From positions 32,001 to 96,000 of IMG/VR virus record IMGVR_UViG_3300030333_001364: a stretch of 64,000 nt of DNA; one strand, given 5' to 3'. Under the pieces are notes generated by a model. The model was not told the origin of the DNA, ran no database searches, and was given only the letters and a program-made list of their open reading frames with translations. Both the position numbers and the translations under genes were made by a program. The DNA comes from a virus. Taxonomy: Duplodnaviria; Caudoviricetes. How positions within the stretch are numbered: the first letter of the stretch is position 1; each line of letters begins with the position of its first letter. Below are positions 46,425 through 64,000 of this stretch, piece after piece.

Positions 46425-46925
46425 ATGAAGCAAATCAACACATTCGTCTTAGATATTACAATCTATATCTTAGACTTCCTCTACAGAGGTAGAGACTTTC
46501 AAAGGTTCTGGGTTCTTGAAGTGATTGCCAGAGCACCTTACTTTTCTTTTATAAGTGTGTTACACTTTAGAGAATCACTGGGACTGAGAGGAGAAGATCA
46601 TGTACACTTGATGAAGGAACATTTTTATCAGGCACTCAATGAAACAGAACATCTTGAAGAAATGGAGCTTAGAGAAGGTAACAGGTATTGGATTGACCGC
46701 TTCTTTGCCAAACATCTTGTTTTACTTTATTATTGGATTATGGTTGGGTACTATCTTCTTAGTCCTAAGAACGCTTATGACATCAACTTGAAGATAGAGA
46801 AGCATGCTTTTGAGACATATACAAAGTATCTTCTATATCATCCAGAAGATAAAAAGATAGCAGAGATAGCACAGGATGAATTAGAACATGCAAAAGAACT
46901 ACAACATGCTATGATGATGATATGA
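46425..46925 (+). CDS. ptox: plastoquinol terminal oxidase (alternative oxidase family)
   Basis: RFWVLEVIARAPYF plus di-iron motifs NETEH, EKHA..TY and DELEH. Confidence 0.93.
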   Translation: MKQINTFVLDITIYILDFLYRGRDFQRFWVLEVIARAPYFSFISVLHFRESLGLRGEDHVHLMKEHFYQALNETEHLEEMELREGNRYWIDRFFAKHLVLLYYWIMVGYYLLSPKNAYDINLKIEKHAFETYTKYLLYHPEDKKIAEIAQDELEHAKELQHAMMMI

Positions 46926-58592: not shown

Positions 58593-58980
58593 TAAGTATG
58601 TTCGCTTCGTAAATCAAGTTACGAGTGACGAATCTAAAGATGCTGTAGCATTCATGAACCGTATACAAGACCTGAAGGAGCAGAAGACTGAAATGCATCG
58701 TCTTTTGACAGGAGCAGTAGGTGTATGTTCTGAAGGTGGAGAGTTTTTAGAGATAGTAAAGAAGATGATATTCCAAGGCAAACCATGGGATGAGGCAAAT
58801 ATACGTCATCTCAAGATAGAACTAGGAGATATCATGTGGTATGTTGCACAGTGCTGCATGGCATTAGATGTACCTCTTGAGGAGATAACTGACATGAATA
58901 TTGATAAGTTATCTAAGAGATACCCTAACGGTATGTTCCAAGAGTACTATTCGGAGAACAGAAAGGAAGGTGACCTCTAG
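58576..58980 (+). CDS. mazG: MazG nucleotide pyrophosphohydrolase
   Basis: SEGGEFLEIVKK, ELGDIMWY and N.DKL.KRYP. Confidence 0.92.
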   Translation: MTSNFDKYVRFVNQVTSDESKDAVAFMNRIQDLKEQKTEMHRLLTGAVGVCSEGGEFLEIVKKMIFQGKPWDEANIRHLKIELGDIMWYVAQCCMALDVPLEEITDMNIDKLSKRYPNGMFQEYYSENRKEGDL

Positions 58981-59665
58981 TTATTGTATAACTTGTCTTA
59001 AGATAGGCGACAAATTTGACCATTCATATGTGAATAATCTTTATGGTATGATAAGTCGCCAGTCTGATGCAGATTTTTATTGCTTTACGGATGATCCTGA
59101 GGGGATTGATCCTAAGGTAAATGTTGTAGAGATAGACGCTAGTGAGTATCAATCATGGGATAACTGGTGGGCAGCGTGGTGGAAGATAGTACTCTTCGTT
59201 CGTCCTGAGTTAGAACAGTATAGCAGAAAGATCTTTTTTGACCTAGATGTTATCATTCACGGAAATATCTCACAAGTACTTGACTTTGATAGTAACTTTG
59301 CATTAGTATACAGTACATGGAAGGGAGTTCCCTTCAAAATGAAGTACCCACACAAGAGTTTATTCAACTCAAGTGTTATAGTTTGGAAAGACGCTACGTC
59401 AATCTATGAGTATTTTATGCAAAACGCAAAACATTATGTGTCTAAATATGCAGGAACGGATGATTTCTACCACAACGAAGGAATCAAGAGAGAACAACTA
59501 CCGCACTGCATATATTCCTACAGGGATGGAGAGAAACCAAATCAATTGAACAGTTTTATTTTGAGACAGAACAAAGCAATAGCACTCCTACATCAGAGAC
59601 CAAAGAATCATGAATTGAGTGAATCAGAACATCCAATAGTGAAACACTGGAACGTTTATATATAA
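58970..59665 (+). CDS. GT-A fold glycosyltransferase-like protein
   Basis: CLKIGDKF...YVNNL, CFTDD, WWK, FFDLDV (DxD) and FNSSV. Confidence 0.75.
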   Translation: MTSSYCITCLKIGDKFDHSYVNNLYGMISRQSDADFYCFTDDPEGIDPKVNVVEIDASEYQSWDNWWAAWWKIVLFVRPELEQYSRKIFFDLDVIIHGNISQVLDFDSNFALVYSTWKGVPFKMKYPHKSLFNSSVIVWKDATSIYEYFMQNAKHYVSKYAGTDDFYHNEGIKREQLPHCIYSYRDGEKPNQLNSFILRQNKAIALLHQRPKNHELSESEHPIVKHWNVYI

Positions 59666-59734
59666 ACGTACGAGGAGTGATGCTGCCTGTCCAAAAAAGA
59701 TCGTCGTTCAACAACTTTATAATCAAAAAACATT

Positions 59735-59989
59735 ATGTCTTTTGTTAATCCTAAGTGGTTCGAGCGTTTTCCTCGCACCATTACTAAAGCAGTTACATGG
59801 CGTAGCTGGATGATGGTTACTAACAGTGTAATCGGTTGGATCGTTTCGGGTGATCCTTGGAAAGGTCTTACAATCGGACTTATGGCACTCGTCATAAACT
59901 CCACACTTTATATTCTACATGAGCGTCTCTGGAACAGAAACGACTGGCAGCGTAGAACAACTTCTGCTACAGAGAAAGTTTACATCTAA
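59735..59989 (+). CDS. DUF2061-family small membrane protein
   Basis: RTITKAVTWR ... LYILHERLWNR..W pattern. Confidence 0.75.
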   Translation: MSFVNPKWFERFPRTITKAVTWRSWMMVTNSVIGWIVSGDPWKGLTIGLMALVINSTLYILHERLWNRNDWQRRTTSATEKVYI

Positions 59990-59995
59990 TAAATA
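59988..59995 (+). promoter_or_regulatory. T4-type late promoter
   Basis: AATAAATA upstream of the DctP-like gene. Confidence 0.55.
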
Positions 59996-60027
59996 CTATT
60001 AGTAAAACTATTCCTAAGGGGTAATTT

Positions 60028-60987
60028 ATGAAAACAATTAGATGGGTTCTAGCACACGAACCAATTGAATTGTTTCTAAGAGCTGCGAGAAAGTTCAAGG
60101 CATCTATGGAAGCAATCGCACCAGGTGCTTTGAACATCGAAATTCTTACACTCTCTGAGTACGCTGAGAAGTATAATAACGGTGAGTCAATTACTAAGCA
60201 CGACTTACTAGATCTAATGGCAGAAGGGAAGATTGAGGTTTCCCAGATGTATACCTCAACATTAGGTCGTAAGCACAACAAAGATTTCTGGGCATTAGAT
60301 ATGCCATTCTTGTTCCGTGATCATGATCACGCAAGTCATGTCTTTGAAGGTCCTATTGGTAAGTCACTACTTGATGGTTTAGCAGACCCTGCTAAAGGTG
60401 AAAAGGGCGGAGTAAAAGGTTTAGCGTTCACATACTCAGGTGGATACAGAAACATCCCTGCAAACGCAGAAATACATAAGATCGAAGACTTTGAAGGACT
60501 TGAGTTACGTTGTAACAAATCTCCTATCGCTATTGAAACTCTAGAATGCGTTGGTGCTAAGACAGTTCCAATCGAATTAGAGCAAATCAACGAAGGAGTT
60601 CAGTCTGGAATTATCGTTGGTGGAGAGTCAACATACCCTCGCTTCTTTGGATTGAAGCAGAATGAGTGTATGAATACAATCAACGACACATCACACAGTC
60701 TATTCCTTACATCAATCATTGTAAGTGAAGAGTTCTGGAACTCTCTAGACAAAGATCTTCAAGATAAGATCCAAGACGCATCATTCGATGCTGCTAGAGC
60801 AGAAAGAGTTTGGTCTGTGGAAGACATTGACTTAGTCAAGTCTGCATGTGCCGATGAGAACATCAACGTTGTCACTATGAGCGACGAAGAGAAGTCTAGA
60901 TTCAAAGAAAAGACAGCATACATCTATGACAAGTATGCACACTTGTTCCCAGAGGGACTTGTGGATTCTATAAAAGAAACAAAATAA
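60028..60987 (+). CDS. TRAP-transporter DctP-like solute-binding protein lacking a signal peptide
   Basis: LDMPFLFRDHDH, GGYR, EDFEGLELR, GAKTVPI...QSG and SEEFWNSL..DLQ. Confidence 0.85.
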   Translation: MKTIRWVLAHEPIELFLRAARKFKASMEAIAPGALNIEILTLSEYAEKYNNGESITKHDLLDLMAEGKIEVSQMYTSTLGRKHNKDFWALDMPFLFRDHDHASHVFEGPIGKSLLDGLADPAKGEKGGVKGLAFTYSGGYRNIPANAEIHKIEDFEGLELRCNKSPIAIETLECVGAKTVPIELEQINEGVQSGIIVGGESTYPRFFGLKQNECMNTINDTSHSLFLTSIIVSEEFWNSLDKDLQDKIQDASFDAARAERVWSVEDIDLVKSACADENINVVTMSDEEKSRFKEKTAYIYDKYAHLFPEGLVDSIKETK

Positions 60988-61009
60988 ATTCCACAGTGCA
61001 TGGAATCCT

Positions 61010-61035
61010 AGGGAGTCTTCGGACTCCCTTTTTTT
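61010..61035 (+). terminator. Rho-independent terminator (UUCG loop)
   Basis: AGGGAGTC-TTCG-GACTCCCT followed by a T-tract. Confidence 0.92.
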
Positions 61036-61066
61036 GTGTCTATATACTACATGGGATCCTTTTATA

Positions 61067-62137
61067 ATGCAATTTCTTGAGTGGCCATCTCAATATCTCT
61101 CTAGTGCAAAGTATTTTGATACTCCTAGGTATCAAATGTTCTTTCTGAAAGAAGAGAATGAATTGAACAGATGGATGGGCATGAGATGTATATGTAGAGC
61201 AGGATTATTACCAACAAAAAGAAATTACACAGTTATATCACCACTACCAGATTTTGTAGACAATAATTTTCACACTGATATGACTATAGATGATTGCTGT
61301 AGAGATGCAGCAGATCTATGTGTCGAATATGCTGACGGTAGAACGATAAATCTCTTGTGGTCTGGTGGTATTGATAGTACTACTGTATTCTATGCCTTAC
61401 ACAACACAGGTCTTACCATAAATGTACACTGTGACCCTCAGGTAGAGAAGGAAGCACCATTCATATTCAGTAAACTAGATGAGTATGTCAATATGAATGT
61501 TATCATGCACCACCATGACAATACTCAAGACTGTGCACCCTATGAAGCAGGGATGAGTGTAAGGAAGGGAGTACAACCTTACATAAACGAGGACAATATA
61601 TTTGTAACAGGTGAGATTGGTGATCAAATATTTGGTACAGGTAAGATATTTGCTTTTCCACCAGACAAATGGGACAGAGATTACAGGGAGAGTATACCTG
61701 AGAGGATAGATGAACTGACTTATGACACTATGCACTATGCCTTGAACAAAGAAGGTGCTAGTCTAAAGCAATGGATGTGGGCAGGAAGTTATATGTTCAA
61801 ATATCAAACAGCAGCAGTCCGTAGCATCAGATACTATGGTGCTGTAGCACCGTTTGCTCCATATAATAATTGCTTCCACTTCTTTGATACACCTAACTGG
61901 AATAGATATGGACATACTAATCAAGATGAGAACAGTTCTTGGCAGAAACCAAAGGAGTATAAGATGCCACTCAAACAGTGGATATATGAACAGAATGGTG
62001 ATGAATATTATAGAGATAACAAACTAAAGTTTCCATCATCTAATAGAAAGAGATTATATAACAATGATCTTGATGGTTTGCATGACAATGAGGAGTGGTT
62101 TGCACTTCAGAAGTCTGTCTTTGGGGGTAATATGTAG
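61067..62137 (+). CDS. asparagine-synthase-like PP-loop ATP pyrophosphatase (no glutaminase domain)
   Basis: LLWSGGIDST, VTGEIGDQIFG, FFD and YKMPLK; start uncertain (61034-61067). Confidence 0.75.
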   Translation: MQFLEWPSQYLSSAKYFDTPRYQMFFLKEENELNRWMGMRCICRAGLLPTKRNYTVISPLPDFVDNNFHTDMTIDDCCRDAADLCVEYADGRTINLLWSGGIDSTTVFYALHNTGLTINVHCDPQVEKEAPFIFSKLDEYVNMNVIMHHHDNTQDCAPYEAGMSVRKGVQPYINEDNIFVTGEIGDQIFGTGKIFAFPPDKWDRDYRESIPERIDELTYDTMHYALNKEGASLKQWMWAGSYMFKYQTAAVRSIRYYGAVAPFAPYNNCFHFFDTPNWNRYGHTNQDENSSWQKPKEYKMPLKQWIYEQNGDEYYRDNKLKFPSSNRKRLYNNDLDGLHDNEEWFALQKSVFGGNM

Positions 62138-63339
62138 TGGGATATCAAGAACTAGATGAAAATATATTAGAGTCTATGCATCCAGACCGTAACGCTCATT
62201 CATGGTCTGAAGATGGTAGTCTTGAACCTCCTTATGATTATAAATGGAGCACTGAATATATGCCTAGGGGTCTGAAAAACAAGGAGGGGAAGGGATGGTA
62301 TTATAAAGGTAATTTTACTAACAAAGAGAACGCACTCAACAGATATTTTAGGACTAGATGTGTATGTAGGAGAGGTAAAATTGTACCCAAACACCCATAC
62401 AAAATAATATCACCACTACCTACCAACCTTCACACTGATATGTCATTTGATAATGTGTGTGAGGATGCTGTCAACGTTATCAATGATAATTCTAATGGAA
62501 GAAAGATAAACTTATTATGGTCAGGTGGTATTGATAGCACCACTGCACTATATGCTTTTGCTAGAACAAATATACCAATCAATGTACACTACGATGTCTC
62601 AGCAAAGAATGAGTGTACAACAGGGTGGAATGATCTAGAGACAGGTAAGTTTAGTAACATAACTGCTATCAATCATGGATACGTCAACGAAAGATTTGCT
62701 CTTAGAACTCCTCTGATTCCATACGTAAAAGATACTAACAATTTATTTGTCACAGGTGAGATAGGAGACAATATAATGGGTTCAGCAAGAGTATTTTTAT
62801 ACCCACAAGAAGTTAGAAATGATCATTTCAATAAGGTAATTCCTGATTGGGTGGCAGAAATATGCCATCAGTCATTGATGTGTGTTCTGAACAAGAAAGA
62901 TGTTAGTCTAAAGCAATGGACTTGGGCATGGTGTTTCATGATCAAGTATCAGTACTGTCAGGTCAGATGTCATGAACAATATAATATAGCACCTTATCCA
63001 CCACTCAATAATGCGTTTCACTTCTTTGATACACCTAACTTTCAGAGGTGGGCGGTCACAAATCAGGACTATATAAACAGTTGGCAAGAAATACCTGAGT
63101 ATAAGATGCCATTGAAACAGTTTATATACGAGCAGAATGGTGATAAGTTTTATAGAGATCATAAACTAAAGACCCCATCATCTAATAGACGTAGGGTACA
63201 AGGAGGATTCAATTTTGAAGATCAGGTCACTGGACTTGAATTGAACGACGAATATATAAGAGTGATAAAGAAAACCTTTGGAGCAAATACTCCAGATGTA
63301 AAGGGGTTCTCTAGAGAAGAAAGAAAAAACATGTACTAA
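62137..63339 (+). CDS. asparagine-synthase-like PP-loop protein, tandem paralogue
   Basis: LLWSGGIDST and VTGEIGDNIMG; shares RC.CR.G, ISPLP and EYKMPLKQ.IYEQNGD with the neighbour. Confidence 0.75.
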   Translation: MGYQELDENILESMHPDRNAHSWSEDGSLEPPYDYKWSTEYMPRGLKNKEGKGWYYKGNFTNKENALNRYFRTRCVCRRGKIVPKHPYKIISPLPTNLHTDMSFDNVCEDAVNVINDNSNGRKINLLWSGGIDSTTALYAFARTNIPINVHYDVSAKNECTTGWNDLETGKFSNITAINHGYVNERFALRTPLIPYVKDTNNLFVTGEIGDNIMGSARVFLYPQEVRNDHFNKVIPDWVAEICHQSLMCVLNKKDVSLKQWTWAWCFMIKYQYCQVRCHEQYNIAPYPPLNNAFHFFDTPNFQRWAVTNQDYINSWQEIPEYKMPLKQFIYEQNGDKFYRDHKLKTPSSNRRRVQGGFNFEDQVTGLELNDEYIRVIKKTFGANTPDVKGFSREERKNMY

Positions 63340-64000
63340 TGATAGACAGAGGTAAACAATTTGAATTTGCTGTCATGAAGTCTGCTTATAGTAGGATAAG
63401 AAACCCTAGTCTTACTAAGCAATCCATGCTGGCATTTTTTAATGGTCAACCTATAGAAGCTAATGTACAAAATGCAGCAGATAAAATGGTGGATAGGATA
63501 GGTGGGAGTAGAAATACTATTAGAGGTAATGATCCATTCTATGACTCTTTTATATTGATGGGTGGACAAAGACCTGAACCAAAAACAGATATCATATTCA
63601 GAAAAAATGGTGTCAAACATAGATGTTCTCTGAAATATGGTGGTAGGTTTCAATTATCTTCTGCTGGTATAGAGAGTACTGTAAAGGTAATGAATGATGT
63701 GCTAACAAAAGTATCCTTTAGTGGGGGTCTTGGTGGGTTGCAAGTAAAGAAAGTTGCCTCAGTGCTATCAGAACTATCAGAAGTATTTGAAGGACCTAAA
63801 AGACAAGAGAAACCTATAATGGATAGACTTATGAGAGAAGCAAAGAAGGAGGGTGGTATAAATGAAACGTTGCAAGATATACTAGGGTCAAGAAAAATGC
63901 CAGATGGATCAAAAGTATTTCAAACATTCAAGGAAGAGTTAGTCAGGGAAGCATTGACAGGTAGAATTATGTTTGGTGTCAACAATGATAAGACTGCTAA
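63339..64000 (+). CDS. putative PD-(D/E)xK-like nuclease, 3'-truncated by the window edge
   Basis: Read manually and open to the window end: MIDRGKQFEFAV...EPKTDIIF...CSLK...EALTG. Confidence 0.55.
   Translation, partial: MIDRGKQFEFAVMKSAYSRIRNPSLTKQSMLAFFNGQPIEANVQNAADKMVDRIGGSRNTIRGNDPFYDSFILMGGQRPEPKTDIIFRKNGVKHRCSLKYGGRFQLSSAGIESTVKVMNDVLTKVSFSGGLGGLQVKKVASVLSELSEVFEGPKRQEKPIMDRLMREAKKEGGINETLQDILGSRKMPDGSKVFQTFKEELVREALTGRIMFGVNNDKTA

Follow-up and report, generated by a model that had tools for sequence, protein, structure and literature searches.

We analysed a 64,000-nucleotide (nt) window of phage DNA, bases 32001-96000 of the 118,972-base IMG/VR virus record IMGVR_UViG_3300030333_001364 (CheckV completeness 55%), and found that four of its genes, at positions 59735-63339, represent a conserved and mobile cassette in which a binding protein of the DctP family without any export leader is combined with a small DUF2061 protein and with stand-alone AsnB-type synthetases. 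All four genes had been reported in an earlier note on this DNA and were found exactly where it placed them, on the plus strand and in the order DUF2061 (59735-59989), DctP-like gene (60028-60987), Lig1 (61067-62137) and Lig2 (62137-63339). As a tentative reading, which we regard as plausible if just short of probable, we propose that the DctP-like protein acts in the cytoplasm of the infected cell as a substrate-capture partner for an adenylating amide ligase, the two being carried together in a mobile phage cassette.

The 319-residue DctP-like protein matches PF03480 with 140.1 bits (cut-off 23.4, 1.2e-40) and NF037995 with 100.4 bits (cut-off 50); its score against TIGR00787, 115.8 bits, lies under the cut-off of 175.05. 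The AlphaFold model (pLDDT 93.8) superimposes on solved TRAP binding proteins with VIA Z scores of 34-36 and a root-mean-square deviation of 2.1-2.6 over 297-302 of the 319 residues. The full two-domain fold is thereby shared with DctP-family binders such as 4n8y, 4nq8, 4xeq, DctPAm (7bbr) and SiaP (2cex) (Z 33.5-35.9, deviation 2.1-3.0 over 296-304 residues), the sequence identity to any solved binder being just 17-24%. What the phage protein lacks is the signal peptide. An in-frame TAA stands two codons 5' of the ATG and leaves no room for a leader encoded upstream; the ATG itself follows an AAGGGG ribosome-binding site. Residues 2-7 form the first strand of the model, and model residues 1-3 pair with residues 23-37 of the solved precursors, which means that the phage protein begins where the mature domain of its relatives starts. 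The same holds throughout the clade, as 30 of 30 aligned members open with M-x-x-[IV]-[RK]-WVLAHEP and not one has a hydrophobic leader. The earlier claim that the protein starts directly at the first strand is thus borne out by the upstream stop, by the clade and by the model.

The binding site appears to be retained as well. Two arginines, R141 and R161, are invariant in 30/30 clade members; R161, the Arg of the GLELR motif, which the earlier note had correctly seen to be kept, pairs in a HMMER alignment with the Arg of GLKIR in 4n8y, and R141 likewise aligns with an arginine of 4n8y. A conserved Arg is described as conferring carboxylate specificity on TRAP binding proteins (PMC4646407). 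A homologue search with the DctP-like protein yielded 2169 matches at E ≤ 0.001, possibly including ordinary DctP proteins, and the best 120 of these range in length from 251 to 334 residues. The clade itself was seen solely on viral or unassigned metagenomic contigs, and a scan of 185,579 prokaryote species, each represented by a single genome, turned up no close relative. Searching GenBank phage DNA with the cassette gave zero matches, and a search of cultured-phage proteins with the DctP-like protein returned 10 records at 20.8-25.5% identity, all of them ordinary DctP genes on fragments.

TRAP binding proteins are periplasmic and deliver their ligand to a membrane permease, DctQ/DctM, for which we searched at several levels. 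As stated in the earlier note, the window contains neither dctQ nor dctM, and DctQ and DctM profiles also drew a blank across the full 118,972-base record (55% complete), in which the DctP profile found the one gene. DctQ was absent from all five larger related phage records, and DctM was present in one of the five (record G002). DctM and DUF2061 were likewise absent from 5/5 Prochlorococcus genomes, which had been chosen via the similarity of a phage gene for plastoquinol terminal oxidase (PTOX, see below) and three of which are titled complete chromosomes. Compared with the known DctP-family binders, the phage protein keeps the fold and both arginines aligned to those of 4n8y, and shows a linkage to DUF2061 and ligase genes in place of DctQ/DctM.

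Phages do encode binding proteins destined for export, the cyanophage PstS being a familiar case. Like the DctP-like gene, the phage genes for PstS, TAXI-type and TctC-like proteins derive from bacterial transporter binding proteins, but the exported proteins keep their leaders and one of them also adjoins a permease, while the DctP-like protein has neither. In G002 the DctM-like gene (433 residues) lies beside a TAXI-type binding protein (NMT1_3, 322 residues) with a typical signal peptide (L036:10199-12461, minus strand), and the TctC-like proteins in loci L056 and L058 also carry leaders. Because these phages keep leaders on binding proteins bound for export, the leaderless state of the DctP clade looks deliberate. 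The TAXI/DctM-like pair of L036, for its part, looks like a separate phage-borne TRAP-type uptake system.

The gene directly 5' of the DctP-like gene encodes an 84-residue protein that matches PF09834 (DUF2061) with 50.8 bits (cut-off 23.1, 2.3e-13) over profile positions 1-52 of 52, and 17 residues are invariant among 18 phage homologues. A helical hairpin is predicted. The family assignment made in the earlier note therefore stands, whereas its label of two transmembrane segments is weaker, as the best 19-residue Kyte-Doolittle means are about 0.9 and 1.51 against a usual level of 1.6; the integral membrane location that Pfam describes for the family is accordingly no more than a prediction here. 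A complex prediction for the DctP-like and DUF2061 proteins gave a score of 0.00 and, run with no controls, is uninformative in either direction. In published work, DUF2061 genes appear in tables of iron-responsive or regulator-linked genes, among them tables for Caulobacter and Shewanella, and within a Fur-regulon block in Vibrio parahaemolyticus; the table entries state no function. A holin/antiholin pair made up of DUF2061 and the binding protein was considered and set aside, as the cassette occurs in only some phages and as bacterial DUF2061 genes are, according to the same entries, chromosomal members of iron-limitation regulons.

Downstream of the DctP-like gene follow two stand-alone PP-loop synthetases of the AsnB type, Lig1 with 356 and Lig2 with 400 residues. 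Lig1 was assigned by the family hidden Markov model (HMM; 2.3e-103) and Lig2 by its structure model and motifs. Lig1 more likely starts at the ATG at 61067; the listed ORF is headed by a TTG at 61034, but the position of this codon, within the T-rich tail immediately after the terminator stem, speaks against it. The start of Lig2 overlaps the stop of Lig1 by 1 nt. The two proteins are 44% identical, and both contain WSGGIDST and an RCxCR motif. Among 65 sequences of the family, S129, G130, G131, D133, S134, T135, G207 and D211 are invariant, with little or no variation in the PP-loop and in a TGExGD motif. The RCxCR motif, which the earlier note had singled out as common to both enzymes, is indeed present in both, but across the 65 members only its last Arg (R78) reaches at least 90% conservation while the cysteines do not, so that it has to be seen as a local motif and no feature of the family. 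Neither protein matched any Pfam family, PF00733 included, and distant relatives scored 18.7 and 20.3 bits against PF00733, under its cut-off of 21. A sequence search of solved structures with Lig2 found none, the family profile hit other enzymes solely in their PP-loop region (E ≥ 0.0028), and Lig2 had no match among cultured-phage proteins.

The relationship became apparent from the Lig2 model (pLDDT 82.3, first 34 residues disordered), which is nearest to AsnB-type chains with Z scores of 10.4-13.1 over 191-254 residues, at 8-13% identity. Human and E. coli asparagine synthetase, beta-lactam synthetase and the hydroxyamidotransferase TsnB9 gave VIA Z scores of 12.4-13.1 and carbapenam synthetase 10.4-11.4, while GMP synthetase, NAD synthetase, LarE and the other PP-loop enzymes listed stayed at Z ≤ 7.9. 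With the synthetase domains of all these AsnB-type enzymes the ligases share the SGGxDS PP-loop. They differ in being 356-400 residues long, compared with roughly 500-580 in AsnB-type enzymes, and in having no N-terminal glutaminase: both proteins are too short for it and begin with MQF and MGY, without the Met-Cys start, which agrees with the earlier description of two SGGIDS enzymes lacking an Ntn glutaminase domain. The structural alignments of Lig2 to AsnB-type chains start mostly at model residues 33-92. The AsnB-type fold and the SGGxDS motif together suggest the chemistry of these relatives: by analogy, Lig1 and Lig2 would activate a carboxylate by adenylation and then join it to ammonia or an amine as an amide. 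Two ligase copies are present only in the closest loci (L002-L011), and Lig2 is nearer to the single ligase of the others; in L013-L022 this single ligase is 47-49% identical to Lig2 and 32-33% to Lig1 where Lig1 matched. A search of the window and of its 3' continuation for additional copies of ligase, DctP or DUF2061 was negative.

How firmly the genes belong together was assessed by comparing 58 viral loci of the DctP clade, with 51-100% identity to the DctP-like protein. A DUF2061 gene lies directly 5' of the DctP-like gene in 54 of them (53 HMM matches and one partial copy cut by the contig end). In two of the other four there is no room upstream (L026, L059), and in two a TctC-like gene takes its place (L056, L058). 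An open reading frame (ORF) of the ligase family is present in 51 of the 58 loci and adjacent in 44, and the co-occurrence proposed as a check in the earlier note was thus found for both partners. The trio is inserted after gp41/MazG in the lineage studied here and between gp15 and the large terminase gene in L036; since it occurs in different genome settings, it moves as a unit. In divergent loci (L051-L058, 51-54% identity, contigs up to 345 kb) the pair is embedded in larger gene clusters, for example L058:66-10256, with genes for fatty-acid-desaturase-like, beta-keto-acid-cleavage, short-chain dehydrogenase, AMP-binding, GNAT and ATP-grasp proteins, AdoMet decarboxylase and several PP-loop paralogues, a setting which fits small-molecule chemistry. 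A second, divergent DctP-like gene of 353 residues (L075:2369-3430, PF03480 at 1.9e-18), again without leader, sits 5' of DUF2061 in one sub-lineage and was also seen in L076, L088 and L046-L049.

Seen from the side of the ligase, the association looks different. Among 1.84 billion cluster representatives, the ligase profile matched 2074 at E ≤ 0.001 and 952 at E ≤ 1e-30, and in the Atlas clusters near Lig2 the known taxa are 96-100% viral. From the best 80 of at least 381 ligase loci we examined 76, the other four all carrying DctP. A DctP-like gene is present in only 21 of the 76, in 20 cases together with DUF2061. More often, in 35 loci, the ligase adjoins a cupin-domain protein of about 200 residues, whose Atlas model resembles ureidoglycine aminohydrolase-type cupins (TM score 0.72-0.73), a similarity that can be taken as a lead only. 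Ten loci match a symporter-like HMM, one of them having the cupin as well, and 11 show neither DctP nor cupin nor symporter-like match. This HMM was built from seven proteins of 390-450 residues encoded 3' of the ligase. Five of the seven have 8-12 hydrophobic segments; those of L104 and L106 have none and represent a different protein. Four seeds, which also match phrog_20720, were scanned against Pfam, and two of them match the sodium:solute symporter family PF00474 above its cut-off of 22.8 (L092 75.2 bits, L085 25.9 bits); one seed matches urea-proton symporter chains at 1e-14.

The dependence is thus one-sided: the DctP/DUF2061 pair nearly always occurs with a ligase gene, whereas the ligase usually occurs with another partner, and every type of partner has a small-molecule-binding or -transporting fold. 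The picture of four equal partners drawn in the earlier note does not hold, given that the ligase family is far wider. For the same reason DctP and DUF2061 look like one of several exchangeable accessories, and the variety of partners fits a ligase that is served by exchangeable small-molecule-handling proteins. A further pattern concerns the neighbourhood of the ligase. Among 14 distant DctP-less ligase loci, 10 have a neighbour annotated as tail, tail-fibre or baseplate gene, two (L078, L103) are next to other virion or packaging genes, and two (L083, L095) have no annotated neighbour; in the DctP-bearing loci L098 and L090, scanned alongside, virion genes also adjoin the ligase. In L092 a 534-residue ligase (L092:4395-5999) is fused to an N-terminal tail-assembly-chaperone domain (PF16778, 48.1 bits), and this part is 33% identical to a separate ORF of 158 residues in the same locus (L092:1758-2234). 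A Pfam scan of 20 long ligase-family proteins identified the tail-assembly-chaperone as the only informative fusion; 25 long forms (556-576 residues) have another N-terminal domain in common. That the ligase acts on late structural proteins is a possibility in view of these neighbours.

Signals around the DctP-like gene were also compared. A T4-type late-promoter core, AATAAATA, is located on the plus strand at 59988-59995, 32 nt before the DctP-like start codon, and differs from TATAAATA by one mismatch. Its ATAAATA is the only copy between 40 and 64 kb out of 12 in the window, most of the other 11 being located just 5' of ORF starts in the virion-gene half. Among 57 related loci, which do not count as independent events, 51 likewise have ATAAATA no more than 90 nt 5' of the DctP-like start codon. 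Of the late promoter proposed in the earlier note, the motif and its conserved core are therefore confirmed; promoter function and the timing of expression are predicted from motif and position. The strong terminator reported after the DctP-like gene (61010-61035, plus strand) is clearly present, its hairpin at 61010-61029 combining a stem of 8 bp (5 of them G-C) with a TTCG loop, followed by a T7 tail, and many related loci show similar hairpins after the DctP-like gene. Four marine RNA libraries, from 3 samples and 2 studies, contain contigs that span 59671-61012, across the DUF2061/DctP junction, and are compatible with a DUF2061-DctP transcript ending at the terminator, bearing in mind that contigs cannot reveal transcript ends and that RNA libraries may hold DNA. 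The contig ends at 60998 and 61012, close to the terminator, are a weak hint at most, as there was no comparison with DNA runs; Lig1, Lig2 and most of a glycosyltransferase-like gene further upstream lie outside the contigs, which proves nothing on their expression.

In the mechanism that we tentatively favour, the core enzyme would be the stand-alone synthetase of the AsnB type, present here in the two copies Lig1 and Lig2, which by analogy would adenylate a carboxylate with ATP and couple it to ammonia or an amine to give an amide. The leaderless DctP-family protein would stay in the cytoplasm with its carboxylate clamp kept and would probably be a stoichiometric capture-and-delivery partner, binding the acid substrate or the product for the ligase. 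DUF2061 would work together with it, possibly at the inner face of the membrane. The earlier note had already suggested an intracellular carboxylate binder tied to the ligases, and comparative evidence now agrees with it in the missing leader, the missing TRAP partners, the retained arginines and the gene linkage, all pointing to a reaction inside the infected cell rather than to nutrient uptake; the cytoplasmic location, the binding of a carboxylate, the hand-off to the ligase and the formation of an amide are steps that we infer. Several observations weigh against this reading. Seven of the 58 DctP loci have no ligase-family gene, and although four of these offer at most 310 nt of downstream DNA, space for one is available on at least one flank in L030, L057 and L059. 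The ligase match of L044 and L045 is about 4 kb distant, and most ligase-family genes do without DctP. The ligases need not be co-expressed with the DctP-like gene, because this gene is framed by a promoter motif and a terminator of its own, with the ligases past the latter; presence in RNA libraries, moreover, does not prove transcription. Finally, the DctP-like clade has a mean column identity of 63% with many invariant His, Glu and Asp residues in the 30-member alignment, and such very high conservation could mean an enzyme or a multi-partner scaffold instead of a simple carrier.

Other explanations have to be weighed against a cytoplasmic capture partner. The near inseparability of DUF2061 and DctP (54/58 loci) could reflect a minimal system for uptake or retention, akin to the minimal transporter suggested in the earlier note, with a DUF2061 oligomer as pore or facilitator, the cytoplasmic binder as a high-affinity sink for an external acid and the ligase trapping the acid. 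It would be in keeping with this that the same ligase family elsewhere precedes a protein of the sodium:solute symporter family (L092, L085) and that 8-12 hydrophobic segments were counted in five of the seven HMM seeds, but DUF2061 is only weakly hydrophobic and the passages of the literature that mention it describe no pore or transport function, and we consider this explanation unlikely. We are slightly more doubtful about a modification of virion or tail fibre, in which the ligase attaches a small molecule to, or amidates, a late structural protein and DctP supplies the molecule. The virion neighbours of the distant DctP-less loci (10 of 14 tail, tail-fibre or baseplate, together with L078 and L103), the chaperone fusion in L092, the late-promoter motif before the DctP-like gene and the position of the L036 cassette between neck/tail genes and terminase all speak for it. 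On the other hand, the cassette studied here is in the replication region, away from the tail fibres, no modified virion protein is known, and adjacency is only modestly informative because structural modules occupy a large share of phage genomes. We would call it an equally long shot that the stand-alone ligase stands at the centre of a modular system widespread among phages, in which exchangeable capture modules (leaderless DctP with DUF2061, the cupin protein or the symporter-like membrane protein) feed a ligase that links a small molecule through an amide to a late phage protein, for example at the tip of the tail fibre.

Very doubtful, in our view, is a metabolite sponge, that is, a binder which on its own withdraws an acid or signal of the host in the late phase of infection, its linkage to the ligase being incidental. 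A promoter motif of its own, a strong ribosome-binding site and a terminator would suit a protein made in bulk, and RNA-library contigs cover the DUF2061/DctP pair in four runs; independence is nevertheless at odds with the strong linkage, a ligase-family gene being present in 51/58 loci, and with a trio that moves as a unit, and no candidate signal is known. Nor did the analysis bring evidence for the lysate-released sponge or the sequestered host signal proposed in the earlier note. Classical nutrient import, with the protein reaching the periplasm by an unconventional route and feeding a TRAP permease of host or phage, can draw on the complete binding-protein fold, on the retained arginine clamp and on the DctM-like permease encoded by the related record G002. 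That permease, however, adjoins its own leader-bearing TAXI binding protein, the leader is absent in 30/30 clade members, DctM is missing from the record of this phage and from 5/5 Prochlorococcus genomes and DctQ from 5/5 related records, all of which makes import highly improbable.

The cassette was not described in the literature retrieved on DUF2061, TRAP binding proteins, myoviruses or tail-fibre asparagine synthase, the cyanophage query having been swamped by dCTP. New in the present analysis are the one-sided dependence on a large ligase family, the cupin and symporter-like partners and the tail-fibre context, and likewise the absence of TRAP permeases and DUF2061 from the five genomes of likely hosts, the leader-bearing phage binders as an internal control and the RNA-library contigs. 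If the cytoplasmic capture reading is true, a large and strongly conserved phage clade, non-exportable, permease-less and located beside an adenylating ligase, would amount to a new cytoplasmic use of the TRAP-binder fold and to a new kind of phage-encoded chemistry in a probable Prochlorococcus phage. The link between ligase family and tail fibres, if real, points to an unstudied modification of the phage particle; the modular system, if true, would mean chemical decoration of the receptor-binding apparatus by way of a repurposed cytoplasmic substrate carrier. Both ligand and product are within reach of ordinary biochemistry.

The source of the window is a T4-like myovirus, an uncultured marine cyanophage. 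PHROG matches were found for the major head protein, portal, sheath, tube, terminase, gp43, UvsX and gp41, and further for clamp, clamp loaders, RegA, late sigma factor and MazG. Cultured Synechococcus and Prochlorococcus myoviruses have major head proteins with 73-75% identity to that of this phage. A PTOX gene at 46425-46925 (phrog_4235 at 1e-91) is the best clue to the host, its product showing 67-69% identity to Prochlorococcus genes in nearly all of the 80 genome loci listed; it may be the 'ferritin-like gene' of the earlier note. As the identities of head protein and PTOX point there, the host is probably Prochlorococcus or a close relative.

In this phage the cassette is located in the replication region after gp41/MazG, followed by unknown genes and then by primase and ribonucleotide reductase. 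Upstream of DUF2061 lies a glycosyltransferase-like ORF of 254 residues (58901-59665; phrog_1962 at 2.1e-9, with a weak Glyco_transf_8 match), whose true start is probably further downstream, because the listed ORF overlaps the MazG gene by 80 nt. The same ORF is found 5' of DUF2061 in the marine loci L002-L006, L011-L022 and L046-L050 and is absent elsewhere. Directly 3' of Lig2, at 63339-63998 and continuing to L138:340-1161, is the gene for a 273-residue protein (phrog_22045), which is kept after the ligase in loci L002-L014 with 40-99% identity.

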